A stretch of 64,000 nucleotides of DNA from Dictyostelium discoideum (Eukaryota), in assembly GCA_000004695.1 (NCBI GenBank), contig CM000153.2:3520001-3584000 (forward strand), read 5' to 3'. The notes below the pieces were generated by a model. That model saw only the letters and a program-made list of their open reading frames with translations, was not told the DNA's origin and made no database searches. Shown piece after piece: positions 33,333 through 53,032 of the stretch. Made by a program: the position numbers and the translations under genes. The first letter of the stretch is position 1. Every line of letters starts with the position of its first letter.

Positions 33333-34032
33333 ATGAAATTTATTATAATTTTAATTTTTATATATTTTATTAATAATATTAATGGATCTGTAATTAGGTT
33401 ATTAACATTTAATAATGATCAATGTGGTGGTGAACCATATAATATTATAACTAAAAATATATGTTCTTCTAAAGGTTGTTTTAAAATATCACCAGATAAA
33501 AAAATAATTTATGGTATGAGTTTAACATCAAATGAAAGAATAGTTTCAGGAAATAATATTGGAGAATGTATTAAATTTGATAATTCATCATCGCTAATTG
33601 AATATCAAGAAACCAATAATTTATATTCATTTGAAGGTTATTGTAATGAAATTATCACAGATTCATCAACAACTACAAATAATAATAATAATGAAAATAT
33701 TGAAGATTACAGTTGATTCATTAAAAGGTGAATATTGTGGATTTAATTCATCATCAAGCCAAGATTCAAATTATTTCTATTTTAAGAAATCATGTAATTT
33801 AGAAAATGGTATTATTACTCTATCAAATTGTAAATCATGTTTATCTGGTGACAAAAATTGTAAAATTATTCAAACAATTCAAACAAAAACTCAAACAACT
33901 TGCACATCAATTATATCATCTAAAAAATATACTTATCATAATATTTTTGATAATAATTCAAATATTTTAAATAATAATTTTAATTTTTTAACATTTTTAT
34001 TATTGTTAGTAATAATTTCTTTAATTATTTAA
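33333..34032 (+). pseudogene. Cys-rich secreted, GPI-anchor-like small protein gene that is split by an apparent frameshift near 33700 (ORF 33333..33716 in frame 0, ORF 33598..34032 in frame 1). It is either a pseudogene or the sequence carries an indel error.
   Basis: Signal peptide MKFIIILIFIYFINNINGS and a Cys pattern (QCGGEPY..NICSSKGC..GECIKF..GYCNEI) in frame 0. The continuation KGEYCGFNSS..SCNLENG..CKSCLSGDKNCKIIQT..TCTSI plus a hydrophobic C-terminal tail (LTFLLLLVIISLII) lies in frame 1. No intron of legal size can bridge the two. A related paralogue lies at 56296..57069. Confidence 0.4.
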
Positions 34033-34123
34033 TACTTTTAAAATAAAAAATAAAAATAATTCTAAAAACATTTAATTTTTTTTTTTTTTATTATTATTTA
34101 TTTATTTTTTTTTTTTTAATTTA

Positions 34124-34262
34124 CAACTCTAATTATACTAACAACGGGTTGATTAAGTACTTTTCTAATTGGACCACTTGCTGAAAAGAAAGAGAAAAAC
34201 ATTGAACAAATGAAAACTATTATAATTAATTGCCATGGTAAAGTCATTGGAATTGGTAACAA
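34124..34262 (-). pseudogene. Duplicated fragment of the last about 46 codons of permease paralogue A (LPIPMTLPWQLIIIVFICSMFFSFFSASGPIRKVLNQPVVSIIRVVN*), detached from any upstream exon
   Basis: About 95% identical to 34545-34685, the genuine 3' end ..SAFGPIRKVLNQPVVSIMRVVT*. It lies in copy A of the segmental duplication. Confidence 0.6.
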
Positions 34263-34333
34263 ATTAAAATTTTTCTTTTTATGGGATTTTTGGGTTTAAT
34301 AAAAAATTAAATTAATAAAAAAAAAATTAAAAC

Positions 34334-34425
34334 TAAAACTCAAACGATTTGTGCATCAACTATATCATCTAAAAATATACTTATCATAATATTTTTGATA
34401 ATAATTCAAATAATTTAAATAATAA
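34334..34425 (+). pseudogene. Degenerate, frameshifted duplicate of the 3' coding end of the Cys-rich gene (KTQT.C.S.ISSK...)
   Basis: Matches 33886-33990 with substitutions and a 1-nt deletion in an A-run (aaaaatatac versus aaaaaatatac). It lies in copy B of the segmental duplication. Confidence 0.5.
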
Positions 34426-34544
34426 TTTTAATTATTTAACATTTTAACAAATAAAAATTTTAAATTTTAAAAATAATTATTCTAATATTTTAATTTAAAT
34501 TATTATTATTATTATTTTTTTATTTATTTATTTATTTTATTTTT

Positions 34545-36771
34545 TTAAGTTACAACTCTCATTATACTAACAACGGGTTGATTAAGTACTTTTCTAATTG
34601 GTCCAAAAGCTGAAAAGAAAGAGAAAAACATTGAACAAATGAAAACTATTATAATTAATTGCCAAGGTAAAGTCATTGGAATTGGTAACATTGTAAATAA
34701 TTGTCTTTGAAGGATCATTGTGAAACCAACAGTTGAACCAATAAACATACCCAACATTGAGGAAGCCATAACCAATACGAAAGCTTCATAGACGTAAATT
34801 CTAATCATCCAAGATTTTGGTATTCCCAATGCACATAAAACACCAATTTCTTTAGTTTGTTCTAAAATATTTGAATATACAGAAGACATTAAAGAGAAGA
34901 AAGAGATGGTCATTGCTAAAACTGTAGTAAAACTGAAAAAGTATTGAATGATCACAGAGGCCGTTGCAAAAGGTTTAATCTTTTCATAGTAATCCAACAT
35001 ATCGAAATCCTCTCTAAGATTACCAATTAAAAAGCTATTTAAACGATTCTTTATTGATTCTACAGCATCTTTATCATCAGTATTCAATTTCAAAATCACT
35101 TGATTCATTGGAATTTCACGTACTGATGAGAAGATACTACTTGCATACGAGAGATAAGTTGGAAATGATACGATTGAATCTTGATTTGTAACTGATGGGA
35201 ATTTAGAGAATTTAAAAGATGGTGCGCTATCTAACATTGCCGATGGTTTAACTAAGTGTCTAGTGGAATTAACTGATGAAGCTTCACCAGATTTAATATT
35301 TAATTGTAATAGGAATGATTGATCAATTGAAGCACCAATAACATCGGTATACAATGAACCAATGATTATCTTTTGACCACTAGTAAATGAATAGATTTGC
35401 TCGGAAAGATATTGAATATCATTCAAACTATAATCAGGATCAGGAGCGATTGAGCTTGCCTTTAAGAATCCAGGTAAAGTAGTAGCGAATAAGTTTGGAG
35501 AAATCGCATACATATTGGTGCCATCACTATAGATATGACCAATGTTTGTAATTTGAGATTGTTGATATTGTTTAGTCATAATTGAGAAAGATGAAGACTC
35601 CCAAGCGTAATCTTCAATCTCTGGTTGATATTGTGAGAGGAATTGATCGATTAACAAAGTTGACTCTGGTTGAAAGAATGGTTCACTACTTTTCACACTT
35701 AGATAACTACCATAGCTTTGTTGAACTTGATAATTCATTGATGCCTGTTGCATAGAGTATGAAACATTGACAAAGATAATGAATGCCAATGAAACTGCAT
35801 ACATGATAGCGGTCTTTCTATTTCTAAGTTTATGAGCTATTAAATTCTTTATAACCAATGATTTGATAGCACGTTTCTCCCAAAAGAAGAATAGATTAAC
35901 TACAGCCCTCTCTAGAATCTGTTCAACATTTAATGCTAAACTAACCAACCCCAATAACATTGCAATCAACAACATGAAGAACATATTTAAAAGTAGTGTC
36001 AAATTGAATGAAAGCAACGACAATGGGAACACATAATAAATTCCAAAGCCAAACACAGACAACAATGAGCCAATCAATGCAACCGATGATGAGAAACTGT
36101 TATCTTCACTACGTTCAATTGAGATTTGTACAGCGGCAGTCTTTGAATGTTTCACATCTAAAGAGTCATGTAAATTCTTACCCAATGCATTACGAATTGG
36201 AAAGATTGCCGACGCTATTGGAATTATAATACCCAATGCCGATGCTAACAATATGGCTTCACCTGTTAATTTTGGTGGAATTGGTACGCCAGTAATTGAT
36301 TTGAAAATAGCAGAAACAATGAATCCAAATACTTGAGCAATTAATAAACCTAAACCCCAAGATGGTACACTATAGGAGAATGCTTTGAATAGCATCAATT
36401 GAATAATACCATTTCTTGTTGTACCAATCATTCTCATTACACCCATTTCAAAGGTTCTAGTCTCTACATCAATCATCAACAATGAATAAATCAATAGAAT
36501 CGATAAAAACAATAGAATGAATATGATTACATTCAAAATCAAACCTAAAAATAATGCTACATATCTATTCTTTGAAAGTTCACTCATCACTGGTAATTCT
36601 GATGAAAGTTCATTAAATCCAACTTTATATAAAATTTTATTTGAAAAATCTACAATCTTTTCTAAAATTACATCTTGATTTGAATTAATATATGGTGTTA
36701 ATCTTGATGGTGGTAAATTTATAATAACTTGTTTTGAATAATCATAAAAATTAATTTTTGAAATATAACTT

Positions 36772-36810
<39 letters not shown>

Positions 36811-37996
36811 AAAAATTAATATATATATATATAATTTTTCCCCGATTTTTTTTTAAAAAAAAAAAAAAACAATATTAAATAAACTTACTTTTTTGAATTA
36901 TAATTCATTTCTGGATCAAATTGTGTAATTAAAAATGGTAAAAATGTTGAATATTCAATGATTATGGAAGAACTTTGATCGGATGGGAACTTACCTTCAG
37001 AAGAAGAGAAAGTATCAGCAACAGTTGCTGTTGCATAAATTACGGGTATGGTTGAAGAGGTGATATTGGCATGAGTCCAAATTGATGATAGAAATGATCT
37101 AGTTGGAATACGAATGAATATTGTATCACCCTTTGAAATTGATAATTTATTTGCTAAATTCTCTTGAACGTAAACTGTACCCTGTGGTGGAGCATCCAAT
37201 TTCCAATCACGACCTAATCCCATCCTCTTTTCACGTGCAGTATCAATCACAAACATCGATGCTTTACTTGCTACTGAATTACTACAAACTGATTCGAAAC
37301 AGTATGGTTCACATTGATTTGGCTCATCATGATATTTCCAAAGATTATCATTTGGATTTGTGTTACCGTTTGGACACGACTTTGCACTAACCACACTAAC
37401 AGTCCCATCGACTCTTGGTGAATGGTAACTATCATCTACTTCTTCTAATTCATATTGATTATTATTATTATTATCATCAAAATAACTTCCATTTGGTTCT
37501 TTATATGTACCAGCTAATAACTCTGATAACATTGTATAATTTAATTGATCTGATAATGTCCATGAACCAGGTGTCAACACCATATCCATTTCACCAACAC
37601 TTGCTTCTGACAAACTTAGGAATACCACTGGTGTGTTGGTGATGATGGAAACACATAGTGACACTATAAACACTACCAAGAAGCATGCGGAAAATCCTAA
37701 CAAATAGGATAACTTATTACGTAGATTGATTCTTAATGTATGTGAAAAGAAATGTTTCCAATGGTAGAGTAATGTTCTAAACCAATTCACTATCTTCACT
37801 TTTACTGTATCACCATTTATTGCATTTGATATACCCTTGAATTTACCATAAGGTTTACTTGATATTTTCTTCTTAATTTTACCATTGTCATCATAATTAT
37901 CTTTATTTTTTAAAAATGTTTGTTCTTCTGAATTTTCTATAAATTCATCAAAACTATCGCTACTACTACTACTACCATTACTTTTATTTATTTTTA

Positions 37997-38036
<40 letters not shown>

Positions 38037-38120
38037 ATCTCTTGATTTTATAAAATCATCATCTTCTTCATCATCATTATTATTTATAGATTGATATTTA
38101 TTATTCCTTTTATTTGTCAT
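34545..38120 (-). CDS. Double MacB/FtsX-type permease-domain membrane protein, paralogue A, about 1151 aa. This is the divergent copy. Exons complement(36889..38120) and complement(34545..36768).
   Basis: A GTAAGT donor (36888) and a poly-A+G acceptor (36769) join in phase 2: ..EMNYNSK|N|YISKINFYDYSKQVII... The N-terminal module is ..KLSYLLGFSACFLVVFIVSL (TM1), a large ectodomain, then LYIAVTIN...; the FtsX core is LNMFFMLLIAMLL..MGVMRMIGTTRNGII. The C-terminal module is IKNLIAHKLRNRKTAIMYAVSLAFIIF (TM5), a second ectodomain, then the FtsX core EIGVLCALGIPKSW. Confidence 0.75.
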
Positions 38121-39538
38121 TATTTTTTGGTTTCTATTTTTTTGTTTCTTTTTTTAATAGTAATATATATACATATATAAAACTATTTTTTATTGTTTAT
38201 TTTAATCTTTTTTTATTTTTTTTAGGATTTTTGAAAAAATTTAAAAAAAAAAAAAAAAAAATTTAAAGATTATGTCAGTGAAATTTTGGTGGTGTTATTT
38301 GTATTTAATTAAAAAATTTGTGTGGTATAAATTCTGGAAAAAAAAAAAAAAAAATTAAAATAAAATTTAAAAAAATAATAATAAAAAAAAAAAAAAAAAC
38401 TAATAATATAAATGGGGTATATTAATAATTGTAACACTTTCAGATATGTAAAAAGTAATAACACTGAAAAAAAAAAAAAAAAAAAAAAAAATTAGGAAAA
38501 ATAAATTGAAAACTTAAAAAAAAAAAATAAAAAATAAAAAAATAAAAAAATAAAAAAAAATCTTTTAATTTTTTTAATTGTAACCATGATCCAATAATCT
38601 CTAAATTTTTTTTTTTTTTTTTTTTTTTTTGGTATCGTTTTCTAATTATTTGTTTTAGATGACCACCTGTCATTTCCTTCAGATTGCAATCAATAATTAA
38701 AATCAGATTATTAAAAAAAAAAAAATAAATAATATAAAATAAAATAAAATAAAATAAAATAAAATAAAATAAAATAAAATAAAATAAAAACATCAAAAAA
38801 TAAAACTGAAAATAATTAAAATATTTTTTATATTTTTTTTTTTTTTTTTTTTATAAAATTGATAAACAATTTAATTAACAAACAATTTTTTTTTTTTTTA
38901 TTCACTTACAATTTTATTTTTGCACACCACTTTTTCTTTTTATTTTGGCCTAAAATTATAAAAAAAATATCTTTTTTAAAAAAGATTTTTACATTTTTTT
39001 TTTTATTTTTTTTTTCTTTTTTTTCTTTTTATTTTTTTATTTTTAATTTTTTTTTTTTCAATTCATTTCATTTCCATTATTTCTTTAAACTTATTTTTTT
39101 TTTAATATAACCCTTTTTATTAAATATTTGTAAACAATGAATCAATTAGGTATGTTTTAAGACTTTTATTTTTTTATTTATTTTTATTTTTATTTTTTTT
39201 TATTATCATTATTTTCTTTAAAATATTACTAACCATAAATTTATTTCTATAGGATCCGGACCAACAAAACAAGGAGTTGCAACAAATACAGGTTCAACTG
39301 GAACTACTAAAAATAATAGCAACCTTAGTGGAAAAGGTTGGGTTCTTTAGGTTTTTTGATGATCTTTTCTTTATTGTGAAATTACTTACCATCATCAATT
39401 TTTGTTGATTGATCAAAAAAAAAAAAAAAAAAAAAAAAAGTATGCAAATTACTTTTATAAATATATTTTTAGAATATTTCAAGTTTTCTAATCAAAACAT
39501 AGTTTTTTTTTTTTTGTATTTTAGAATTAATGTATAGA

Positions 39539-39593
<55 letters not shown>

Positions 39594-39920
39594 CCAATAA
39601 ATAACAGAACATTTCTAATTCATTATTGAAAAAAATATAAAAAAAGTAATCAAATGAATATAATATAAGGTATAATTTTAATATTAGTTTTAATCTTAAA
39701 TTTTTTTTTTTTCCAATTAATATTCACAATCAAATTTATATTTAAAAAATAAAAACAGTAAATTTGGAAACAAATCAAAAGAAATAAATTTGTTTTTTGT
39801 TTTTTTTTTAAATAGTTTTATTTTAAATAATAAAAATAATAAAATAAAAAAAAAGTAATAATTAAATCTTTCAGTTCTTTTATTTTACTTTTTATTTTAC
39901 TTTTTTTTTTTTAAAAAAAA

Positions 39921-42900
39921 TTAATCTTTTAAAACTGTTATGATTGATTGTTTTAATAAATGTCTAATTGGAGAAATTACAGAAATGATTGAGACAATTA
40001 AAGATGAAATAAAGAGTATAGGAATTAATTCCCATTGAATTGAAAATGGTATAATTTGTTGATCCATCATTGATTGTTTTAATAGAATAATATAGCTAAT
40101 GAAAAGACCAATAATAATACCAATTATACAACTACCAAATGAAAGTGTAAAAGCTTCGATAATATAGATTTTATAGATTTTAAAATTTGATAAACCAATT
40201 GATCTTAGAATACCAATTTCTTTTGATTGATTTTTAATACTTGTAAACATTGATGAAATTAATGAAAATGATGATATTATTATAGAGATTACTGTTGCGA
40301 AATCAAACAATAATGAATTTAATTTATCTGAACTGTTTGATGAATCTTTATATCTAATTATATATGGACTTTCAGAGTTTTTATTAAATAAACAATTTTT
40401 TGAAATTTTATATTGTAAAGAATCGATTTTATCGTCATCTAATGATTTTGGTTTAATTAAAATTAAATTAACTGGTATATTCCTAACTGAATCAATATTA
40501 CCACCTGATAATCCGACATATGCTGGAAAAGAAGTAATTACACTTTGAGTAAGATCTTCATCCGGAATTTCAGATACACTAAATGTACCTGCAGTTTTTA
40601 AATATGCTAATGGTTTCACTATATTTCTACCCATCCAGTTGAATGTTACATTATGTTTTTGACTTCGACCTGATGAATAATCTATTCTTCTATAGTTATT
40701 AATTTCAATATAATTTGATAATATAAATTCATCTGGTCCACCTTTTTCATCAAGATACATTAATTTCTTTTGAGATTGAGTTAATATTAATTTATTCATT
40801 GAATCTTTGCTATATAAAATCGTTGATAAATCAGTCATATCACCATTTTGATTAAAATCAACATCTTTATCAGTTTTTAAATTTTTTGAAACTGATGAAA
40901 CTTGAAAATAATCTTCCATTATTTCACTGAAATAAGTTGGGCCAACTGCATGTAATGATGATTTTAATGTTACACTTCTAGCAAAATCAGAAACATATGA
41001 TTTCTTATCATCGGGTTGAGAAAATTCACTAAATTTCATTGATCTTAATGAATAACTATCTAATTCATCATTATTTTCATCATCTAATATACGATCTAAA
41101 CATAGAGTTATATTTGATAAATCTTCTCTGGTGATAAAGGAACCAGTTTCAATCTTTAAAAGTGAACCAAACGATTGTTTCTCATTAGCATTTGCAGTTT
41201 CAACTTGAATTAAATATAAACAATTAATTATAATTATTAAAGATACTGAAACACCAAACATAAACATTGTACTTTTATTCTTTTTCTTGTGAGAAATTAA
41301 ATTTTTATATAAAATTATTCTGATTATATTTTTTGCAAAAGGATCTATTAAAGTAATAATGTAAACTAATGTTTTTGAAATGATTAAATGGAAATTCATC
41401 ATTAAGAAAATTGCTGATATTAAAACTAAAATTAACAATCCAAATAATAATGCTAATAATGAACTAAAATTACCAGATAATAATAATTTTGGTAATAAAA
41501 TACAACCAACTATACCTAAAGCGCTTAATGACAAACCAATCCATGATAAATACTTTCTATATTCTGAATCAGTTGAATCTTTATCAATTGTTGTAATTTG
41601 ATGTGATGATGATATATTTGATCTACTAGTATCCAATTGCTCACCTAATGAAAAACTTAATGCTTTTCTAATTGGTAATATCAATGATACCATTGGTATT
41701 AGAAAACCAAGTAAAATTGAATAAACAATTGAATCTACTGTTAAATAATTTGAAATTTCATCTGAATTTGTAAAACGTTTTAATTGATCTATAATTATAA
41801 ATAAAAAGATTTGAGAAATTATTAAACCTAATATAATTGATGGGACTGTGAATATTATTGTTTTTGAAACTATTAGCTCGATGATGAAACTAAATTTAGC
41901 ACCTAACATTCTAAATACACCGTTATTAAATGTCATTGAATCCACATCAATCATTAATGTTGTATAAATTAAAAGAATTGATAATAAAAGGAATACAAAA
42001 ACTATTAAATTTAATAATTGACCTAAATTACTTGAAACTTCGTTACTCTTGTATAATTCAGTCATTATTGGTGTTGAAATATCAACTCTACCAACACCAA
42101 TTTTGTAAACTAATTTCGAGGCAACTTTATTTACTCTTTGTAAAGTTTTATCTAAATCTGTACCATAATACATTGGCAATCTGGGGGATGGAAATTTCAT
42201 AACTATATTTTCAACATATTCTTTTATATTTTTATTTTTCATTAAATCTACATTCCATGTTGGATTTACTTGTTCAACCATTGAATCATAGAATGAGTCA
42301 ATATCTATTAAAACTGATGGTATTATCTCACCCAATTCGAAACCTAGTTCAAATGGATTCTCTGTATTATTGAAAAATCCATTAACTTTTAATTTTGTTA
42401 TTATATATGGTGATTTTTCAATTTGAGTTGTTGAAATCATTGAATCTGTTAATAATGTTGATAATAATCTAACTGCTGGTACTATTATAAAAATTTCATC
42501 ACCAACATTTGCATGGATTGATTGAGCAAGTGATTCTATAATTAAACATGTTCCTTTTGGTTGTGATCCATAACCAAATGTTGATTTTATACCCATATCA
42601 TTCTCTTTTTTAAAATCTAGTAATTGGAAACCCATAAATACATGATTTCCTTCACCACTACATCTATTAATAAAACAAGTGCTCTCTGTGCAATTTAAAC
42701 CACTCCCATTTGAAAAGTATCTTGATTCAATATTATCTTGTACAACTTTTTCACAATAACTTACTGGATATCCATATGTATCTATAAAATTAAATCTTGG
42801 TGAATTATTTTTAAAAAAACTATTTTTATTACTAATACCACTACCACTATATAATCCATGGGTATTCTTTTCATCAGCTCCAACTCTATTATCATCTTTT

Positions 42901-43643
42901 ATTTCTCTAGTTGTATCATTTAAAATTTGATCAAATAATGTATAATTTAATCTTATAGTAAAACCTTTTTCTAAATCTATTGAAAGTTGTTGTTTTCCTG
43001 ATATTATTAAATCTATATGATTAGCATCAGAATCTGCTTTACTTAAAAATATTAATGATATATTTGATAATACTGATAAACCAGTTGCAACTAAAATTAC
43101 TACTAAAAAACATGATATAAAACCAATACTATAATTCAATTTACTCCTTTTAATACCATTTATTGAATATTTAATTATTGAAAACCATTCTCCAATAGTT
43201 GTATTAAATCCAATATTTGTTAAATTTATTTGAATCTTTTTTAAAATAAATCCAAAATATTTTAAAAATTCTAAACTTCCAAAAATTAATATTATAAAAA
43301 ATTCCAAAAAAACAAAAATTCCTTCAATTATTATTTTAAGTTTATTGAAAAAATAATTCTCTTTTTTAATATTATTATTATTATTATTATTTATATTATC
43401 ATCATAATAATAAATATTGTCACCTTGACAATCATTTTCAAGTGATCCTTTTAAAATTGATAATTCAATTGGGTCACATTCACCAACACTCTCTCTCCAT
43501 TTATTATAAAATTTTTTATTAATTAAAATTGGATCATTCTCATTCCTATTATTTATAGAACTCTTTAAAATTGAACTATTTTCATTGATGATACTATAAT
43601 CACCATCATCATTATCATTCCCACTTGATTCATAATTATACAT
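39921..43643 (-). CDS. Double MacB/FtsX-type permease-domain membrane protein, paralogue B. Single exon, 1240 aa.
   Basis: Uninterrupted ORF. Two tandem modules, each with an N-terminal Arg/Lys-rich amphipathic stretch plus TM (INGIKRSKLNYSIGFISCFLVVILVATG; RIILYKNLISHKKKNKSTMFMFGVSVSLIII), a large MacB-periplasmic-like ectodomain (GDEIFIIVPA..), and a 3-TM FtsX core with the signature loop (NNGVFRMLGAKFSF; EIGILRSIGLSNFKIYKIYIIEAFTLS). About 90% nucleotide identity to paralogues C and D. Confidence 0.8.
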   Translation of the reverse strand: MYNYESSGNDNDDGDYSIINENSSILKSSINNRNENDPILINKKFYNKWRESVGECDPIELSILKGSLENDCQGDNIYYYDDNINNNNNNNIKKENYFFNKLKIIIEGIFVFLEFFIILIFGSLEFLKYFGFILKKIQINLTNIGFNTTIGEWFSIIKYSINGIKRSKLNYSIGFISCFLVVILVATGLSVLSNISLIFLSKADSDANHIDLIISGKQQLSIDLEKGFTIRLNYTLFDQILNDTTREIKDDNRVGADEKNTHGLYSGSGISNKNSFFKNNSPRFNFIDTYGYPVSYCEKVVQDNIESRYFSNGSGLNCTESTCFINRCSGEGNHVFMGFQLLDFKKENDMGIKSTFGYGSQPKGTCLIIESLAQSIHANVGDEIFIIVPAVRLLSTLLTDSMISTTQIEKSPYIITKLKVNGFFNNTENPFELGFELGEIIPSVLIDIDSFYDSMVEQVNPTWNVDLMKNKNIKEYVENIVMKFPSPRLPMYYGTDLDKTLQRVNKVASKLVYKIGVGRVDISTPIMTELYKSNEVSSNLGQLLNLIVFVFLLLSILLIYTTLMIDVDSMTFNNGVFRMLGAKFSFIIELIVSKTIIFTVPSIILGLIISQIFLFIIIDQLKRFTNSDEISNYLTVDSIVYSILLGFLIPMVSLILPIRKALSFSLGEQLDTSRSNISSSHQITTIDKDSTDSEYRKYLSWIGLSLSALGIVGCILLPKLLLSGNFSSLLALLFGLLILVLISAIFLMMNFHLIISKTLVYIITLIDPFAKNIIRIILYKNLISHKKKNKSTMFMFGVSVSLIIIINCLYLIQVETANANEKQSFGSLLKIETGSFITREDLSNITLCLDRILDDENNDELDSYSLRSMKFSEFSQPDDKKSYVSDFARSVTLKSSLHAVGPTYFSEIMEDYFQVSSVSKNLKTDKDVDFNQNGDMTDLSTILYSKDSMNKLILTQSQKKLMYLDEKGGPDEFILSNYIEINNYRRIDYSSGRSQKHNVTFNWMGRNIVKPLAYLKTAGTFSVSEIPDEDLTQSVITSFPAYVGLSGGNIDSVRNIPVNLILIKPKSLDDDKIDSLQYKISKNCLFNKNSESPYIIRYKDSSNSSDKLNSLLFDFATVISIIISSFSLISSMFTSIKNQSKEIGILRSIGLSNFKIYKIYIIEAFTLSFGSCIIGIIIGLFISYIILLKQSMMDQQIIPFSIQWELIPILFISSLIVSIISVISPIRHLLKQSIITVLKD

Positions 43644-43651
43644 TTATCTGT

Positions 43652-43685
<34 letters not shown>

Positions 43686-43709
43686 GAAAATGGTTAGCAC
43701 TTCTTTCCG

Positions 43710-43743
<34 letters not shown>

Positions 43744-44496
43744 ACTGATTATTTTTTGACTTTTTTTTAAATTCTTTTATTTTTAATTCCCTAATTTTTT
43801 TTTTTTCTTTTATTTTTTTTTTTTCTATTTTTTTTTTTTTACTTTCTGATTATATTTTTTTTTTACTTTTTTTTTTTTTTACTTTCCGATTATTTTTTTT
43901 TTTTAAAAAAAAAAATAATTTATTGGTCTTTCAATTTTTTTTAAAAAGTAAAGAAAAAAAAAAAAAAAATAAGTGTAAAATTTAAAGTTTTACAAATGAT
44001 TGCAAATGTGTCTAGAAAATAAAAAAAAGAAAAAAAAAAAAAAAACGAAAATTAGTTTTGAAATAATCTTGTTTTTTAGGGATTTTCTTGAAAACACAAA
44101 AAACTATTAATCCCGAACCTTTAAAATTTTGAAAAATTAATTATTTTTTTTTTTTTTACTTTTATAATTATTGCTCCATTTTAAATCGATATTTTTATAT
44201 TTTTAGAAAAAAAAAAAAAAAATAAAAATAAAAGAATTAATAATGTAAAGAAAAAGCCAATTATAGATCAAGAGATTTGAGGGGAATGTTTTTTTTTTTT
44301 ATTATAATCATTTTTTTTATAAATTTCCTATTTTCTTGAAAAAAAAAAACTGCAAGGCACTGTAAAGAAAATTTTTTGGTCTGAGGAATAGTGTTTTATT
44401 TTTTTAATTTGGATTTTAATTAAAAAAAAATAAAAATAAAAATAAAAAAAATAATAAAAGCCTGGAAGAATTTGGACAATCACTTTGTGGTTCCAG

Positions 44497-44567
44497 AAAA
44501 AACTATATCATAAATTATAAAAAAAACCTCAGAAGATACAAGGAAATTCTTTGAAGATCCAATCACT

Positions 44568-44608
<41 letters not shown>

Positions 44609-44733
44609 ATAATTATCCATAAAATACAATAAAACAAATAAAATATTTTTATTCTTAATTTTTTGAAAATCTTCAAGGAATTTCCTTGTATCTTCTCAGA
44701 GGTTCTTTTTATAATTTATAATATAGTTTTTTT
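44497..44733. repeat. Inverted repeat of about 60-65 bp arms (about 44497-44558 and 44667-44733) flanking a spacer of about 108 bp that is mostly poly(A). It is a hairpin or MITE-like element.
   Basis: The left arm is aaaaaactatatcataaattataaaaaaaacctcagaagatacaaggaaattctttgaagat. The reverse complement of the right arm is aaaaaactatattataaattataaaaagaacctctgagaagatacaaggaaattccttgaagat, which differs by only about 5 mismatches. It lies immediately 3' of the paralogue C stop codon. Confidence 0.7.
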
Positions 44734-44750
44734 TTTTTTTTTTAAAGAAA

Positions 44751-47700
44751 TTAATCTTTTAAAACTGTAATAATTGGTTGTTTTAATAAATGTCTAATTG
44801 GAGAAAATACAGAAATGATTGAGACAATTAAAGATGAAATGAAGAGTATAGGAATTAATTCCCATTGAATTGAAAATGGTATAATTTGTTGATTCATAAC
44901 TGATTGTTCCAATAGAATTGTATAGCTAATGAAAAGACCAATAATAATACCAATTATACAACTACCAAATGAAAGTGTAAAAGCTTCGATAATATAGATT
45001 TTATAGATTTTAAAATTTGATAAACCAATTGATCTTAGAATACCAATTTCTTTTGATTGATTTTTAATACTTGTAAACATTGATGAAATTAATGAAAATG
45101 ATGATATAATCATTGAGAGTACAGTTGCAAAATCAAAGAATAATGAATTTAATTTATCTGAACTATTTGATGAATCTTTATATCTAATTATATATGGACT
45201 TTCAGAGTTTTTATTAAATAAACAAGTTTCTGAAATTTTATATTGTAATGAATCAATTAAATCGTCATCTAATGATTTTGGTTTTAATAAAATTACGCTA
45301 ACTGGTATATTCCTAACTGAATCAATATTACCACCTGATAATCCGACATATGCTGGAAAAGAAGTAATTACACTTTGAGTAAGATCTTCATCCGGAATTT
45401 CAGATACACTAAATGTACCTGCAGTTTTTAAATATGCTAATGGTTTCATTACATTTCGACCAATCCAATTGAAGGTTACATTTTGTTGTTGATTTTTACC
45501 AGATGGATCAATTTTTGTATAATTATTAATTTCAATATAATTTGATAAAAGAAATTCATCTGGACCACCTTTTTCATCAAGATACATTAATTTCTTTTGA
45601 GATTGAGTTAATATTAATTTATTCATTGAATCTTTACTATATAAAATCGTTGATAAATCAGTCATATCACCATTTTGATTAAAATCAACATCTTTATCAG
45701 TTTTTAAATTTTTTGAAACTGATGAAACTTGAAAATAATCTTCCATTAATTCACTGAAATAAGTTGGACCAACTGCCCATAGTGATGATTTTAAAGTTTT
45801 AGTTTTAGCAAGATCAGAAACAATTGATTTCTTATCAGGTTGAGAAAATTCACTAAATTCCATTGACCTTAATGAATAACTATCCAAACCATTATTTTCA
45901 TCATCGATTATTCGATCTAAACATTGAGTTATATTTGATAAATCTTCCCTTTTTATAAAGGTACTGGTTTCAATCTTTAAAAGTGAACCAAAGTATTGTT
46001 TATTTGAAGCATTTGAAATTTCAACTTGAACTAAAAATAAACAATTAATTATAATTATTAAAGATACTGAAACACCAAACATAAACATTGTACTTTTATT
46101 CTTTTTCTTGTGAGAAATTAAATTTTTATATAAAATTATTCTAATAATATTTTTTGCAAAAGGATCTATTAAAGTAATAAGGTAAACTAATGTTTTTGAA
46201 ATGATTAAATGGAAATTCATCATTAAGAAAATTGCTGATATTAAAACTAAAATTAACAATCCAAATAATAATGCTAATAATGAACTAAAATTACCAGATA
46301 ATAATAATTTTGGTAATAAAAAACAACCAACTATACCTAAGGCGCTTAATGATAAACCAATCAATGATACAAACTTTCTATATTCTGAATCAGTTGAATC
46401 TTTATCAATTGTTGTAATTTGATGTGATGATGATATATTTGATCTACTAGTATCCAATTGCTCACCTAATGAAAAACTTAATGCTTTTCTAATTGGTAAT
46501 ATCAATGATACCATTGGTATTAGAAAACCAAGTAAAATTGAATAAACAATTGAATCTACTGTTAAATAATTTGAAATTTCATCTGAATTTGTAAAACGTT
46601 TTAATTGATCTATAATTATAAATAAAAAGATTTGAGAAATTATTAAACCTAATATAATTGATGGGACTGTGAATATTATTGTTTTTGAAACTATTAGCTC
46701 GATGATGAAACTAAATTTAGCACCTAACATTCTAAATACACCGTTATTAAATGTCATTGAATCCACATCAATCATTAATGTTGTATAAATTAAAAGAATT
46801 GATAATAAAAGGAATACAAAAACTATTAAATTTAATAATTGACCTAAATTACTTGAAACTTCGTTACTCTTGTATAATTCAGTCATTACTGGTGTTGAAA
46901 TATCAACTCTACCAACACCAATTTTGTAAATTAATTTTGAAGTAAATTCACTAACTCTTTGTAAAGTTTTATCTAAATCTGTACCATAATACATTGATAA
47001 TCTTGGTGATGGAAATTTCATAACTATATATTCGACATATTCTTTAATATTTCTATTTTTCATTAAATCTACATTCCATGATGGATTTACTTGTTCAACC
47101 ATTGAATCATAGAATGAGTCAATATCTATTAATATCGATGGTATTGTTTCACCCAATTCGAAACCTAGTTCATATGGATTCTCTGTATTATTGAAAAATC
47201 CATTAACTTTTAATTTTGTTATTATATATGGTGATTTTTCAATTTGAGTTGTTGAAATCATTGAATCTGTTAATAATGTTGATAATAATTCCACTGCTGG
47301 TACTATTATAAAAATTTCATCACCAATCTTTAATTCTGTTGCTTTAGCCAATAATTCTACCATTAAACATGTACCCTTTGGTTGTGATCCATAACCAAAT
47401 GTTGATTTTATACCCATATCATTCTCTTTTTTAAAATCTAGTAATTGGAAACCCATATATACATGTTCTCCATCACCACCGCATCTATTAATAAAACAAG
47501 TACTCTCTGTGCAATTTAAATCACTACCATTTGAAAAGTACCTTGCTTCAATATTATTTTCAACAATGTTTTCACAATAATTTACGGGATATCCATATGT
47601 ATCTATCATATGAAATCTTGGTGAATTATTTTTAAAATTTTTTTTTTTACTTCCACCACTACTTGAACTCTGGATTATAGTTTCACTAGCTCCAGCACTA

Positions 47701-48383
47701 TTTTCACCTTTTATTTCTATATTCTCTATTTTTTCAAAATTTAAAATTGCATTATTTAAAATTTTATCAAATAATGTATAATTTAATCTTATAGTAAAAC
47801 CTTTATCTAAATCTATTGACTGATGTTGTTTTCCTGATATTATTAAATCTATATGATTAGCATCAGAATCTGCTTTACTTAAAAATATTAATGATATATT
47901 TGATAATACTGATAAACCAGTTGCAACTAAAATTACTACTAAAAAACATGATATAAAACCAATACTATAATTTAATTTACTCCTTTTAATACCATTTATT
48001 GAATATTTAATTATTGAAAACCATTCTTCAATAATTGTATTAAATCCAATATTTTTTAAATTTATTTTAATTTTTTTTAAAATTAATCCAAAAAATTTAA
48101 ATTCTTTTTTTAAAAATTCCAAAGCTCCAATAATTATTGAGGTTAATAATTTAAAAAAATATAAAATTCCTTTGATTATTATTTTAAATTTATTATTTTT
48201 TTTAAAATGATAATCGTTACTGTCACAATCTTCATCAAATGATGTTAAAATTGCATAATTTTTAGTGATGGAATTATCGTCATCATCTCCATCCTCATCT
48301 TCATTACAGTTGTCATTTTCACTTGGTCCATAAAAATTATGCATTTCTATTCTTTTTTTTATTTTAAAATTATTGGTTAGCAT
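44751..48383 (-). CDS. Double MacB/FtsX-type permease-domain membrane protein, paralogue C. Single exon, 1210 aa; the start may alternatively be the second Met, MHNFYG.
   Basis: Same architecture as paralogue B, with long stretches identical at the nucleotide level. One sign of this is that the spurious antisense ORFs 41380..41601, 46201..46422 and 50727..50948 encode nearly the same peptide. Differences cluster in the acidic N-terminus and in a patch of ectodomain 1 (..GENSAGASETIIQSSSSGG.. versus ..DDNRVGADEKNTHGLYSGSGISN..). Confidence 0.8.
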   Translation of the reverse strand: MLTNNFKIKKRIEMHNFYGPSENDNCNEDEDGDDDDNSITKNYAILTSFDEDCDSNDYHFKKNNKFKIIIKGILYFFKLLTSIIIGALEFLKKEFKFFGLILKKIKINLKNIGFNTIIEEWFSIIKYSINGIKRSKLNYSIGFISCFLVVILVATGLSVLSNISLIFLSKADSDANHIDLIISGKQHQSIDLDKGFTIRLNYTLFDKILNNAILNFEKIENIEIKGENSAGASETIIQSSSSGGSKKKNFKNNSPRFHMIDTYGYPVNYCENIVENNIEARYFSNGSDLNCTESTCFINRCGGDGEHVYMGFQLLDFKKENDMGIKSTFGYGSQPKGTCLMVELLAKATELKIGDEIFIIVPAVELLSTLLTDSMISTTQIEKSPYIITKLKVNGFFNNTENPYELGFELGETIPSILIDIDSFYDSMVEQVNPSWNVDLMKNRNIKEYVEYIVMKFPSPRLSMYYGTDLDKTLQRVSEFTSKLIYKIGVGRVDISTPVMTELYKSNEVSSNLGQLLNLIVFVFLLLSILLIYTTLMIDVDSMTFNNGVFRMLGAKFSFIIELIVSKTIIFTVPSIILGLIISQIFLFIIIDQLKRFTNSDEISNYLTVDSIVYSILLGFLIPMVSLILPIRKALSFSLGEQLDTSRSNISSSHQITTIDKDSTDSEYRKFVSLIGLSLSALGIVGCFLLPKLLLSGNFSSLLALLFGLLILVLISAIFLMMNFHLIISKTLVYLITLIDPFAKNIIRIILYKNLISHKKKNKSTMFMFGVSVSLIIIINCLFLVQVEISNASNKQYFGSLLKIETSTFIKREDLSNITQCLDRIIDDENNGLDSYSLRSMEFSEFSQPDKKSIVSDLAKTKTLKSSLWAVGPTYFSELMEDYFQVSSVSKNLKTDKDVDFNQNGDMTDLSTILYSKDSMNKLILTQSQKKLMYLDEKGGPDEFLLSNYIEINNYTKIDPSGKNQQQNVTFNWIGRNVMKPLAYLKTAGTFSVSEIPDEDLTQSVITSFPAYVGLSGGNIDSVRNIPVSVILLKPKSLDDDLIDSLQYKISETCLFNKNSESPYIIRYKDSSNSSDKLNSLFFDFATVLSMIISSFSLISSMFTSIKNQSKEIGILRSIGLSNFKIYKIYIIEAFTLSFGSCIIGIIIGLFISYTILLEQSVMNQQIIPFSIQWELIPILFISSLIVSIISVFSPIRHLLKQPIITVLKD

Positions 48384-49135
48384 TTTTTTTTTTTTCTTAT
48401 CTAAAACTTAGATGTTATTTTTATTTTTATTTTTATTTTTATTTTGAAAGAAAATAATAATTTATAAAGTCTTTTCTTTTTTTTTTTATAATTAAAAAAA
48501 GAAAATAAATACAGCTTAAATTTTCATTTTATGTTGCTGACATTGCTTCATTGTAAACCTATCTTCATTTTCAAAAAAAGAAAAGGTGGCACTTCAAATA
48601 TTTTATTTTATTATAAAGAAAAAGATAAAAAACTATTGTCTGTCTGGCTTTTTTTAAGAACTAAGAAAAGTTTTTTGAAAATTTGGTTGATCTAGCCTTT
48701 TTTTTTTTTGTTATTTTTTGGTTTTTATGATAACGATCGAGAAAAAAAAAGTTGTTTATTTTCTAAAAAAAAAAAAAAAAACCAGGTGAGTCACAAGAAA
48801 ATTATGTTTGTGTGAAGGGAGTCCCTAAGAAAATAAAAGTTAAAAAAAAGAGGCGACAAACCCACCAGCGCGGCACAAAATTACTTTTCACTTTAGTTTT
48901 TTTGAAATTTGCATTTTTTTTTGATAAAGATTCAGAAAAAAAAAAATGTTTTTAAAAAAAAAAATGAAATGAAAATAAAAAAAATATATAAAAGCCTGGT
49001 AGAATTTGTATAATCAATAAAAGAAGTTCAGTTACATATAATGAAAAAATTATTTTTAAAACTTTTTACTTTTATTTTTAATTTTATTATTATTTTGATT
49101 TTAAAAAAAAAAAATTATTATCTGATTGTCTTAGG

Positions 49136-49171
<36 letters not shown>

Positions 49172-49276
49172 ATCACCCTTGTTATGATTGATTTCGATTC
49201 GATTCGATTTGATTTAATTTGATATGATTTATTATTATATTATTACTATTTTTATTATTTTTATTTTAAAATAAAA

Positions 49277-52200
49277 TTAATCTTTTAAAACTGTAATAAT
49301 TGGTTTCTTTAATAAATGTCTAATTGGGGAAACTACAGAAATGATTGAGACAATTAAAGATGAAATGAAGAGTATAGGAATTAATTCCCATTGAATTGAA
49401 AATGGTATAATTTGTTGATTCATAACTGATTGTTCTAATAGAATTGTATAGCTAATGAAAAGACCAATAATAATACCAATTATACAACTACCAAATGAAA
49501 GTGTAAAAGCTTCAAAAATATAGATTTTATAGATTTTAAAATTTGATAGACCAATTGATCTTAGAATACCAATTTCTTTTGATTGATTTTTAATATTTGT
49601 AAACATTGATGAAATTAATGAAAATGATGATATAATCATTGAGAGTACTGTTGCAAAATCAAAGAATAATGAATTTAATTTATCTGAACTGTTTGATGAA
49701 TCTTTATATCTAATTATATAAGGACCTGTTGATTTTAGATTAGATAAACATTTTTGACTAATTTTTAATCTTAATGAATCAATTAAATCATAATCTAATG
49801 ATTTTGGTTTAATTAAAATTACACTAACTGGTATATTCCTAACCGAGTCGATATTACCACCTGATAACCCAACATATGCTGGAAATGAGGCTATTACACT
49901 TTGAGTTGCACCTTTATCTGGAATCTCAGATACACTAAATGTACCTGCAGTTTTTAAATATGCTAATGGTTTCATTAAATAACGACCCATCCAATTTAAT
50001 GTTACATTTTGTTGTTGATTTTTGCCAGATGGATCAATTTTTGTATAATTATTAATTTCAATATAATTTGATAATAAATATTCATCACTACCACCTTCTT
50101 GATCAAGATACAATAATTTCTTTTGAGATTGAGTTAATATTAATTTATTCATTGAATCTTTACTATATAAAATCGTTGATAAATCAGTCATATCACCATT
50201 TTGATTAAAATCAACATCTTTATCAGTTTTTAAATTTTCTGAAACTGATGAAACTTGAAAATAATCTTCCATTAATTCACTGAAATAAGTTGGACCAACT
50301 GCAAATAATGATGATTTTAAAATTCTAGTTCTACCAAGATCAGAAACCGTTGATTTCTTATTATCAGGTTGAGAAAACTCACTAAACTCCATTGATCTTA
50401 ATGAATAACTATCTAAACCATTATTATCATCCATTAAACCATCTAAACATTGGGTAATATGTGATAAATCTTCTCTAAGTAAAAATGTTTCTGTTTCAAT
50501 CTTTAAAAGTGAACCATAGTATTGTTTTCTAGAAGCATTTGCAGTTTCAACTTGAACTAAATATAAACAACTAATTGTAATAATTAAAGATACAGAAATA
50601 CCAAACATAAACATTGTACCTTTATTCTTTTTCTTGTGAGAAATTAAATTTTTATATAAAATTCTTCTAATAATATATTTTGCACCAGGATCGATTAAAG
50701 TAATAAGGTAAACTAATGTTTTTGAAATGATTAAATGGAAATTCATCATTAAGAAAATTGCTGATATTAAAACTAAAATTAACAATCCAAATAATAATGC
50801 TAATAATGAACTGACATCACCGGATAATAATAATTTTGGTAATAAAAAACATACCACTATACCAAAAGCACTAATTGATAAACCAATCAATGATACAGAC
50901 TTTTTAAATTCTGCATCTTTTGAACCTTTATCAATTGTTGTAATTTGATGTGATGATATTTTTGATCTACTAGTATCCAATTGTTGATTTAATGAAAAAC
51001 TTAATGCTTTTCTAATTGGTAATATCAATGATACCATTGGTATTAGAAAACCAAACAAAATTGAAAATAGAATTGAATTTACTGTTAAATACTTTGAAAT
51101 ATCTGCTGAATTTGATATACTCTTTAATTGATCTACGACTATAACTAAAAAGATTTGTGAAATTATTAAACCTAATATAATTGATGGTATTGTGAAAATT
51201 ATTGTTTTTGAAACTATTAGCTCGATGATGAAACTAAATTTAGCACCTAACATTCTAAATACACCGTTATTAAATGTCATTGAATCCACATCAATCATTA
51301 ATGTTGTATAAATTAAAAGAATTGATAATAAAAGGAATACAAAAACTATAATATTTAATAATTGACCTAAATTATTTGAAACATCTTTGCTCTTGTATAA
51401 TTCAGTCATTACTGGTGTTGAAATATCAACTCTACCAACACCAATTTTGTAAATTAATTTTGAGCAATAATCACCCACACGTTGTAAAGTTTTATCTAAA
51501 TCTGTACCATAATACATTGATAATCTTGGTGATGGAAATTTCATAACTATATATTCGACATATTCTTTTAAATTTCTATTTTTCATTAAATCTACATTCC
51601 ATGTTGGATTTACTTGTTCAACCATTGAATCATAGAATGAGTCAATATCAATTAATATAGATGGTATTGTTTCACCCAATTCAAAACCTAATTCATAACC
51701 TAATTCGTATGGATTCTCTGTATTATTGAAAAATCCATTAACTTTTAATTTTGTTATTATATATGGTGATTTTTCAATTTGAGTTGTTGAAATCATTGAA
51801 TCTGTTAATAAAGTTGATAATAATTTAACTGCTGGTACTTTTAAAAAAATTTCATCACCAATCTTTAATTCTATTCTTTTAGCCAATGATTCTATCATTA
51901 AACATGTACCCTTTGGTTGTGATCCATAACCAAATGTTGATTTTATACCCATATCATTCTCTTTTTTAAAATCTAGTAATTGGAAACCCATATATACATG
52001 TTCTCCATCACCACCACATCTATTAATAAAACAAGTACTCTCTGTGCAATTTAAATCACTACCATTTGAAAAGTACCTTGCTTCAATATTATTTTCAACA
52101 ATGTTTTCACAATAATTTACGGGATATCCAAATGCATCTATCATATGAAATCTTGGTGAATTATAATCAAAATTATTAAAACCACTACTATCACCACCAA

Positions 52201-52685
52201 TAAATAAACTATTGAAACTATTAGCTTCATTCAATTCTATTAATTTTTCAAAATTTAAAGTTGCATCATTTAAAAGTTGATCAATTAATGTATAATTTAA
52301 TCTGACATCAATAATTTCACCTAAATCTATTGATTGTTGTTTGCCTGATATTATTAAATCAATACCATAGGCATCAGAATCTGCTTTACTTAAAAATATT
52401 AATGATATATTTGATAATACTGATAAACCAGTTGCAACTAAAATTACTACTAAAAAACATGATATAAAACCAATACTATAATTCAATTTACTCCTTTTAA
52501 TACCATTTATTGAATATTTAATTATTGAAAACCATTCTTCAGTAATTTTAAAAAATCCAATATTTCTTAAAATTAATTTAATCTTTTTTAAAATTATTTT
52601 AATCCTTTTTAAAATTGATTTAAAAAATTCTAAAATTATTATTATTATTTTTATTATTATTATTTTAAATTTTTTTATATATAAA

Positions 52686-52716
<31 letters not shown>

Positions 52717-53032
52717 CATCTTCATCATTATTATTATTATTATTATCATTTGATGATTTTTTAAAATCTGATAATTCAACTTGACTATATTCACCAACAC
52801 TATCTCTCCAATTATTATAATATTTTTTGTCACTAATTAAAATTGTATCATTTTCATTATTTTCACTCCTTTTCATTGCACTTGTTAATATTGAATTATT
52901 ATTGTTGAGGTTGTTTTTATCCTCATCGTCATCATCGTCGTTATTATTATTGTTATTGTTTTCTTCATAATTATTTACACTATCTTCATTATCGTTAGCA
53001 CTTATTCCAAAATAATTATCATTTTGAACCAT
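49277..53032 (-). CDS. Double MacB/FtsX-type permease-domain membrane protein, paralogue D. Single exon, 1251 aa.
   Basis: Uninterrupted ORF with the same two-module FtsX architecture. The N-terminal extension is extremely D/N-rich (NNNNNNNDDDDDEDKNN...). The FtsX loops are NNGVFRMLGAKFSF and EIGILRSIGLSNFKIYKIYIFEAFTLS. Confidence 0.8.

Follow-up and report, generated by a model that had tools for sequence, protein, structure and literature searches.

A tandem array of predicted YbbP-type permeases in Dictyostelium discoideum: one conserved member of an old protist family and three fast-evolving copies

[quoted passage not shown] What, then, do permeases of this type do in an amoeba, where do they come from, and what drives them? 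The question is raised by a 64-kb stretch of chromosome 4 of Dictyostelium discoideum AX4 (assembly GCA_000004695.1, contig CM000153.2, positions 3,520,001 to 3,584,000; the whole of this stretch is called the window below), which contains four head-to-tail minus-strand genes, here named g1 to g4, with products of 1151-1251 amino acids. A first-pass annotation of the window had described four tandem eukaryotic genes, each encoding two fused MacB/FtsX-type permease modules, and five long minus-strand open reading frames (ORFs) were found exactly where it had placed them. Here, we identify g1 by sequence comparison as the conserved D. discoideum orthologue of an old, protist-wide family, and describe g2-g4 as its young and divergent paralogues. 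We lean, with modest confidence, towards a joint reading in which all four are YbbP-type single-chain permeases, an old family member with young duplicates, that would act by mechanotransmission through a separate ATPase.

The Pfam FtsX domain (PF02687) was matched twice in each of the four proteins, with whole-protein E values of 1.7e-25 to 1.6e-32 and scores exceeding the gathering score (E 1.7e-25 for g1, including both of its matches), and no other domain was returned by the Pfam scan of g1-g4, MacB_PCD and ABC_tran both being undetected. Of the two domains that the first-pass annotation had named for a profile check, FtsX is present in four of four proteins and MacB_PCD is not detected by sequence; the ectodomain fold was recognised from structure models alone, and its assignment to the MacB (Porter/Sabre) type is tentative. 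The duplication of the module is visible within g1, where FtsX cores 1 and 2 are 28% identical over 94 residues (E 3e-7), the motif EIG.L..(I/L)G occurs in both modules, and hydropathy places 10 transmembrane (TM) helices in each protein in a 4+2+4 arrangement (segments of g1 in Table 1). Ectodomain 1 of g1 holds exactly four cysteines (C249, C270, C274 and C279), which are invariant or nearly so across the family, the N-glycosylation sequons of g2-g4 concentrate in the ectodomains, and basic residues flank the cytosolic ends. Judged by topology rules together with these cysteines and sequons, the ectodomains would be exposed outside the cell or in the lumen of an organelle.

An AlphaFold2 model of g1 was built using a 98%-identical strain variant (P0014) as the query and a 36-sequence alignment (predicted local distance difference test, pLDDT, 76.4; predicted template modelling score, pTM, 0.67), and a model of g3 was obtained with a pLDDT of 68.3. 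In Foldseek searches of the PDB, Escherichia coli YbbP ranked first for g1, in an alignment of 1062 columns that runs along the whole chain (9ge7_A, E 6.9e-20, with a TM-score of 0.58 when normalised to YbbP), followed by LolE/C, BceB, MacB, HrtB, YtrF and FtsX, and the ranking was the same for g3 (9ge6_A, E 8.3e-17; 9ge7_A, TM-score 0.60 normalised to YbbP). YbbP is the best full-length structural match for both models; whole LolE and MacB chains were also matched by fold, and BceB aligned partially with the g1 model. These models make the assignment of g1-g4 to the MacB/YbbP type of fold well supported, and bear out the two-module description of the first-pass annotation, which had proposed fold prediction as a check.

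The likeness to YbbP, the permease of YbbAP-TesA (PDB 9ge6/9ge7), is one of architecture. YbbP is composed of two 4-TM units joined by TM5-6, with coupling helices TM2/TM3 and TM8/TM9 (PMC12646458), and, like g1-g4, is a single chain of two 4-TM MacB-type modules and two linker helices, 10 TM helices in all, with two ectodomains on stalk helices and coupling helices at TM2-TM3 and TM8-TM9. In the g1 model, TM1, TM2, TM7 and TM8 are predicted as stalk helices of 36-44 residues, and short helices at 518-527 and 1052-1060 (P0014 numbering) match the YbbP coupling helices. The Dictyostelium proteins differ in being 350-450 residues longer, with long low-complexity N-termini and larger ectodomains, and in the four conserved cysteines of ectodomain 1. 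They differ in genomic setting as well: the YbbP locus has ybbA and tesA, whereas the Dictyostelium locus, in a eukaryotic host, is without an adjacent ybbA-like ATPase or tesA-like gene, and no TesA-type (GDSL) hydrolase domain was found in Pfam scans of ten other large ORFs of the window.

Other systems of this fold differ in organization. In LolCDE, MacB, FtsEX, HrtBA and YtrEF, each permease chain holds one 4-TM module and the chains pair as homo- or heterodimers, unlike the fused g1-g4, and BceB is fused and has 10 TM helices but carries one large ectodomain (TM7-TM8), where g1-g4 have two, after TM1 and TM7; in all of these systems, BceAB included, the ATPase is fused or operon-encoded. 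At the sequence level, in searches that included the family profile against PDB sequences, the FtsX core alone was recognisable, with matches to YtrF, MacB, LolE and LolF. The NCBIfam models of LolC/LolE (TIGR02212/TIGR02213), MacB (NF007826), FtsX (TIGR00439) and ADOP (TIGR03434) all matched g1-g4 below threshold, with best scores of 16-37 bits against cut-offs of 250-966 (for example, 28.6 against 362 for lolCE).

The family to which g1 belongs is broad. Identity to g1 is 57-71% across other dictyostelids (where the protein is named “DUF214 family protein”), 47% in Physarum and approximately 40% in both Mayorella and Arcella, falling to 33-34% in two diplonemids, Diplonema and Hemistasia, and full-length relatives were found in Thecamonas, Fabomonas, Naegleria, Willaertia, Paratrimastix, Blattamonas and the chytrid Fimicolochytrium (Planoprotostelium was also sampled), so that the family ranges over Amoebozoa, apusomonads, ancyromonads, Heterolobosea, diplonemids, Preaxostyla and a chytrid. 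When 1.84 billion cluster representatives were searched with a profile, 32,203 matched at E <= 1e-3 and 1183 at E <= 1e-30, with at least 150 clusters at 50% identity below E 1e-189, most of which matched over the full length. All sampled members with organism names are eukaryotic, and on the contigs of homologues the surrounding genes are of eukaryotic kinds, Mito_carr, RhoGEF and protein kinase genes among them. Two earlier statements are revised by these results. The first copy, g1, had been called divergent and is the conserved one, with g2-g4 as the divergent copies; and the fold had been called rare in eukaryotes, which holds insofar as no animal, plant or yeast relative is among the named matches, but not for protists, in which the family is widespread.

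Prokaryotic relatives were sought by a pattern-plus-tblastn scan of one genome per species across 185,579 species, and no close relative was found in these genomes: just 16 weak matches were obtained, 20-40% identical over 50-190 residues and confined to the FtsX core. Several of the best of these lie in DPANN archaea and bacteria of the candidate phyla radiation, which may reflect the short peptide patterns used in the scan. The nearest, on contigs of DPANN and unclassified archaeal metagenome-assembled genomes (L006, L009 and L011), are single-module MacB_PCD+FtsX permeases, each from a small gene cluster that includes an ABC ATPase gene, and a CARDB/NPCBM_assoc-domain protein, possibly a surface protein, is encoded in two of the three.

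The first-pass annotation had suggested a lineage-specific, possibly horizontally acquired module, that is, a recent acquisition from bacteria that was then amplified locally. The overwhelmingly prokaryotic distribution of the fold and the recovery of g2-g4 relatives from the D. discoideum/citrinum group only would accord with this view, but full-length g1 orthologues span the range from Amoebozoa to Preaxostyla, diplonemids and a chytrid, the prokaryotic scan recovered fragments of the core only, and g2-g4 are nearest to dictyostelid g1 orthologues rather than to bacterial proteins. Recent or lineage-specific transfer is thus not supported by the sequences; recent transfer was rejected on the breadth of the family combined with the lack of a close prokaryotic match, and we consider this explanation largely refuted and extremely improbable. 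An ancient prokaryotic, maybe archaeal, origin of the whole family is possible. Asgard homologues have been reported for the “Eukaryotic ABC3 (E-ABC3)” family that TCDB lists as TC 3.A.1.207 (PMC7997004), which, in a comparison by description only, resembles g1-g4 in being eukaryotic and in having an ABC3 (MacB/FtsX) membrane domain; ABC3 membrane domains have 4, 8 or 10 TM segments (PMC3654945), and that of g1-g4 has 10.

If g1-g4 are ABC permeases, an ATPase should drive them, and the first-pass annotation had noted the lack of a nucleotide-binding domain (NBD), fused or elsewhere in the window. The searches agreed on this point. No ABC_tran domain was detected by Pfam in the ten other large ORFs of the window, the LSGGQ-type signature is absent in all six frames of the window, the two Walker A motifs in the window derive from a G-alpha subunit and a kinase, and tblastn with three MacB-type ATPases from archaeal loci produced no match, whether in the window or at four loci of eukaryotic homologues. 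The archaeal loci, with their clusters of single-module MacB_PCD+FtsX permease genes and an ABC_tran gene, served as the positive control. A missed fused ATPase was ruled out, since FtsX domains were the only ones found in g1-g4 and in seven relatives of unusual length, and an ATPase elsewhere in the window was ruled out by Pfam, the six-frame Walker A/LSGGQ scan and tblastn.

These negatives do not speak strongly against a partner encoded at a distance. In bacteria, the ATPase of a fused double permease is always a protein of its own (PMC5985334), so a missing fused NBD is expected, and because eukaryotic genes are not arranged in operons, the lack of a neighbouring ATPase carries little information. 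Conservation argues for a partner. Among 20-residue windows of the family alignment, the highest mean column identities are those of the TM2 end with coupling helix 1 (0.88), the segment before TM7 (0.83), the TM8 end with coupling helix 2 (0.80) and the segment after TM4 (0.75), all on the predicted cytosolic face, compared with 0.24-0.63, mostly 0.3-0.5, in the ectodomains; that the cytosolic elements are the most conserved supports an ATPase partner. A second strand of the argument is that Dictyostelium has NBD-only ABC proteins whose membrane partner is unassigned (PMC3743828), and similar single-NBD ABCH genes have been reported in Tetrahymena (PMC2984421).

The mechanism that we infer as most likely is YbbP-like mechanotransmission that acts on the exoplasmic leaflet and is powered by an ATPase whose gene lies elsewhere. 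The proteins would be single-chain, pseudo-dimeric type VII (MacB/FtsX-fold) ABC permeases of YbbP architecture, in which each of two modules comprises TM1, an ectodomain of the Porter/Sabre type and an FtsX core of three TM helices, the modules being connected by two linker helices; the basic N-terminus and the short coupling helices (TM2/TM3 and TM8/TM9) would lie on the cytosolic side, and the ectodomains would stand on long stalk helices. Soluble ABC ATPases from another part of the genome would attach as a dimer to both coupling helices, with the NBD-only “ABCH”-class proteins of Dictyostelium as candidates, and on ATP binding the stalk helices would close up like a zip and displace the ectodomains, as in the mechanotransmission of YbbAP, LolCDE and MacB. 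The role assigned to YbbAP-TesA is to draw hydrophobic compounds out of the membrane and supply them to a periplasmic hydrolase (PMC12646458); in the amoeba, a hydrophobic or amphipathic molecule might similarly be extracted or expelled at the exoplasmic leaflet and passed to an extracellular or luminal acceptor, and no transport across the bilayer itself would be involved. As putative recent tandem duplicates of a g1-like gene, with fast-evolving N-termini and first ectodomains, g2-g4 may broaden the ligand range, for example to the bacterial lipids, lipopeptides and toxins met by a bacterivorous amoeba.

Several observations weigh against this reading. YbbP and the Dictyostelium proteins are 11-12% identical in structural alignment, and neither phmmer nor a search of PDB sequences with the family profile retrieved YbbP; the likeness therefore lies in architecture rather than in close kinship. 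Membrane location, orientation and substrate are all deduced from topology rules, the conserved cysteines and the glycosylation sequons. The coupling-helix motif belongs to the consensus of the FtsX domain, and its conservation might reflect folding alone. As to the ATPase, none was found as a partner in the window by Pfam, motif scan or tblastn, none beside three homologues on eukaryotic contigs, and no ATPase domain is fused to any of seven unusually long family members.

Taken at face value, the same negatives would suggest that g1-g4 are ATPase-independent “orphan” permeases, their two ectodomains forming a passive surface or luminal scaffold, a receptor or a lipid-handling platform. The gene linkage of permease and ATPase in the inspected prokaryotic relatives is missing here, and bacterial precedents exist. 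The Acidobacterial duplicated orphan permease (ADOP, TIGR03434) is a duplicated FtsX permease without an adjacent ATPase gene. Its model matches g1 weakly (E 9e-10, 37 bits against a cut-off of 622), and ADOP is restricted to bacteria, with no close relationship to g1-g4 evident. Against the orphan explanation stand the little that a missing neighbour tells in a genome without operons, the fact that all structurally characterised members of the fold work with an ATPase, and the concentration of conservation across distant protists in the coupling helices and juxtamembrane segments, which is hard to explain without docking. We therefore rate ATPase-independent function as unlikely, if the most serious competitor of the mechanotransmission mechanism.

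The three remaining genes have a different history from g1. They are 81-87% identical to one another in protein sequence and 84-92% in DNA over 3.5-4.1 kb (g2 and g3, 92% over 3.5 kb; g4, 90% to g3 and 84% to g2), and approximately 30% identical to g1 in protein sequence. In a shared-word search, which distant relatives could escape, their recovered relatives were confined to D. discoideum, D. cf. discoideum and D. citrinum. Their identity is 30-32% to dictyostelid g1 orthologues and 22-28% to other family members, and they form a very long branch, which fits a group of fast-evolving paralogues derived from g1. Pairwise synonymous divergence (dS) among them is 0.12-0.19, and the ratio of nonsynonymous to synonymous divergence (dN/dS), approximately 0.6 overall, differs by region: it is approximately 1 for the N-terminus, 0.73 and 0.35-0.43 for ectodomains 1 and 2, respectively, and 0.18-0.29 for TM8-10. 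By these estimates, the membrane core is constrained, and the exposed parts diversify. Between g2 and g3, dS drops to 0.023 in the TM2-TM7 region (g3 residues 516-790), compared with 0.12-0.23 elsewhere, which suggests recent gene conversion of the central region within the array.

A high overall dN/dS that approaches 1 at the N-terminus would also be seen if g2-g4 were decaying, non-functional duplicates, pseudogenes in the making, with g1 as the sole functional copy; copy number and length differ among strains and sister species (810- and 1099-residue versions occur), and a truncated remnant of g1 adjoins the array. Decay is nevertheless difficult to reconcile with uninterrupted ORFs of 1210-1251 codons in DNA of 22-25% guanine-cytosine (GC) content, with the clear purifying selection on the TM8-10 core, with the retention of family-invariant residues, including the cysteines and the coupling-helix motifs, and with a g3 model that still folds as YbbP. 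We judge it improbable, and retain the interpretation of g2-g4 as diversifying duplicates.

Domain annotation already exists for the genes and the family, and TCDB has an entry that probably covers them. In databases, the dictyostelid g1 orthologues and g2-g4 go by the names “DUF214 family protein” and [quoted passage not shown] In a literature search, no functional, structural or partner study of the family was found, and text matches to “DUF214” were mostly to other DUF numbers that begin with 214. Three points appear to be absent from the literature searched: the single-chain architecture of YbbP type, the spread of the family over eukaryotic supergroups and the question of its energisation. 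A large, old, full-length family in several eukaryotic supergroups keeps its predicted ATPase-docking helices, and because Dictyostelium is genetically tractable, g1 is suited to asking whether eukaryotes use mechanotransmission-type ABC systems, with g2-g4 as a natural experiment in which the N-terminus and ectodomain 1 diversify fastest. A bolder proposal, which we offer tentatively and hold to be plausible but on balance doubtful, is that the g1 family represents an ancient eukaryotic type VII mechanotransmission machine, dating from the last eukaryotic common ancestor or shortly after and possibly of archaeal origin, powered by an NBD-only ABCH-like protein or, more radically, independent of ATP hydrolysis, of which the tandem surface variants of D. 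discoideum would extract or expel bacterial hydrophobic molecules.

The gene models are consistent across assemblies. Two ORFs, 36885-38120 and 34545-36590, make up g1 and are spliced via a 120-bp GT..AG intron (36888..36769), which confirms that one copy carries an intron; the donor reads AA|GTAAGT, the frame is restored across the junction, the junction peptide ..SKNYISK.. agrees with the annotated strain protein P0014, and the independent annotation of another D. discoideum assembly gives an identical span (3576 bp) and product length (1151 residues). The remaining genes, g2, g3 and g4, are single exons that match DDB_G0285665, DDB_G0285667 and DDB_G0285669, and ORF 44751-48383 (g3) is 100% identical to DDB_G0285667 on the 5.45-Mb chromosome of D. 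discoideum AX4. At 22-25% GC, stop codons are expected, from composition, at approximately 9% of random codons; open frames of 1200 codons therefore do not arise by chance. The GC content of the window is 14-30%. Bacterial contamination was ruled out, in agreement with the first-pass annotation, by the coding composition of 22-30% GC, a single intron of spliceosomal type, flanks made up of typical Dictyostelium genes and the recurrence of the array in other D. discoideum assemblies, in one of which the same four genes adjoin the same Vps54/syndetin gene. The features are collected in Table 1.

Table 1. Coordinates of the permease genes, their parts and the adjacent g1 fragment (window positions; residues refer to the product named)
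Feature	Window position	Strand	Residues	Description or basis
g1 exon 1	36889..38120	-		cytosolic N-terminus of low complexity, amphipathic helix before TM1, TM1, most of ectodomain 1 with its 4 conserved cysteines (predicted)
g1 intron	36769..36888	-		120 bp, GT..AG, extremely AT-rich
g1 exon 2, first part	34545..36768	-		end of ectodomain 1, TM2-coupling helix 1-TM3-TM4 (FtsX core 1), linker TM5-6 (predicted)
g1 exon 2, rest	34545..36768	-		TM7, ectodomain 2, TM8-coupling helix 2-TM9-TM10 (FtsX core 2) (predicted)
g1 TM1			~142-160	hydropathy
g1 ectodomain 1			~161-480	~320 residues; hydropathy
g1 TM2-TM4			~481-600	hydropathy
g1 TM5-TM6			~640-692	hydropathy
g1 TM7			~730-748	hydropathy
g1 ectodomain 2			~749-1013	~265 residues; hydropathy
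g1 TM8-TM10			~1014-1133	hydropathy
g2 (DDB_G0285665)	39921..43643	-		1240 residues; young divergent paralogue, 4+2+4 TM, two ectodomains, extra N-terminal hydrophobic helix
g2 extra N-terminal helix	~43278-43334	-	104-122	
g3 (DDB_G0285667)	44751..48383	-		ORF of 1210 residues; annotated product of 1197 residues begins at the second Met
g3 extra N-terminal helix	~48126-48182	-	68-86	
g4 (DDB_G0285669)	49277..53032	-		1251 residues; third young paralogue
g4 extra N-terminal helix	~52604-52678	-	~119-143	
Fragment of g1 3' end (DDB_G0285661)	34119..34280	-		last ~53 codons of g1; annotated as 43 residues

The N-termini vary within the family. An extra hydrophobic helix precedes TM1 in g2-g4 (Table 1), which g1 and the wider family are without, and the AlphaFold2 model of g3 has a long helix at 53-97, predicted with low confidence. 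The extra helix could be an eleventh TM helix or amphipathic; an eleventh TM helix would flip the N-terminus to the opposite side of the membrane. Two relatives bear other N-terminal additions, a Kelch motif in P0022 (Heterostelium album, 1642 residues) and a pair of EF-hands in P0177 (1277 residues), which may serve in cytosolic regulation or else be fusions of gene models.

By Pfam, the ORFs that flank the array encode RhoGAP, KA1 kinase, GH20 hexosaminidase, BCCIP, syndetin/Vps54-like, counting-factor-associated protein, GSAP-16 and Nop products. The G-protein alpha subunit gene that contributes one of the Walker A motifs lies at approximately 21843 on the plus strand, in a very AT-rich stretch (motif context LLLLGPGESGKSTIFKQMKII), and is unrelated to ABC ATPases. 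Next to the array, a 412-bp repeat (33872-34278 against 34321-34708, 82.5% identity) spans the 3' end of g1 and its downstream flank; the fragment ORF within it (34119-34247, minus strand), annotated in AX4 as the 43-residue “gene” DDB_G0285661, is probably the remnant of a partial duplication rather than a real gene.

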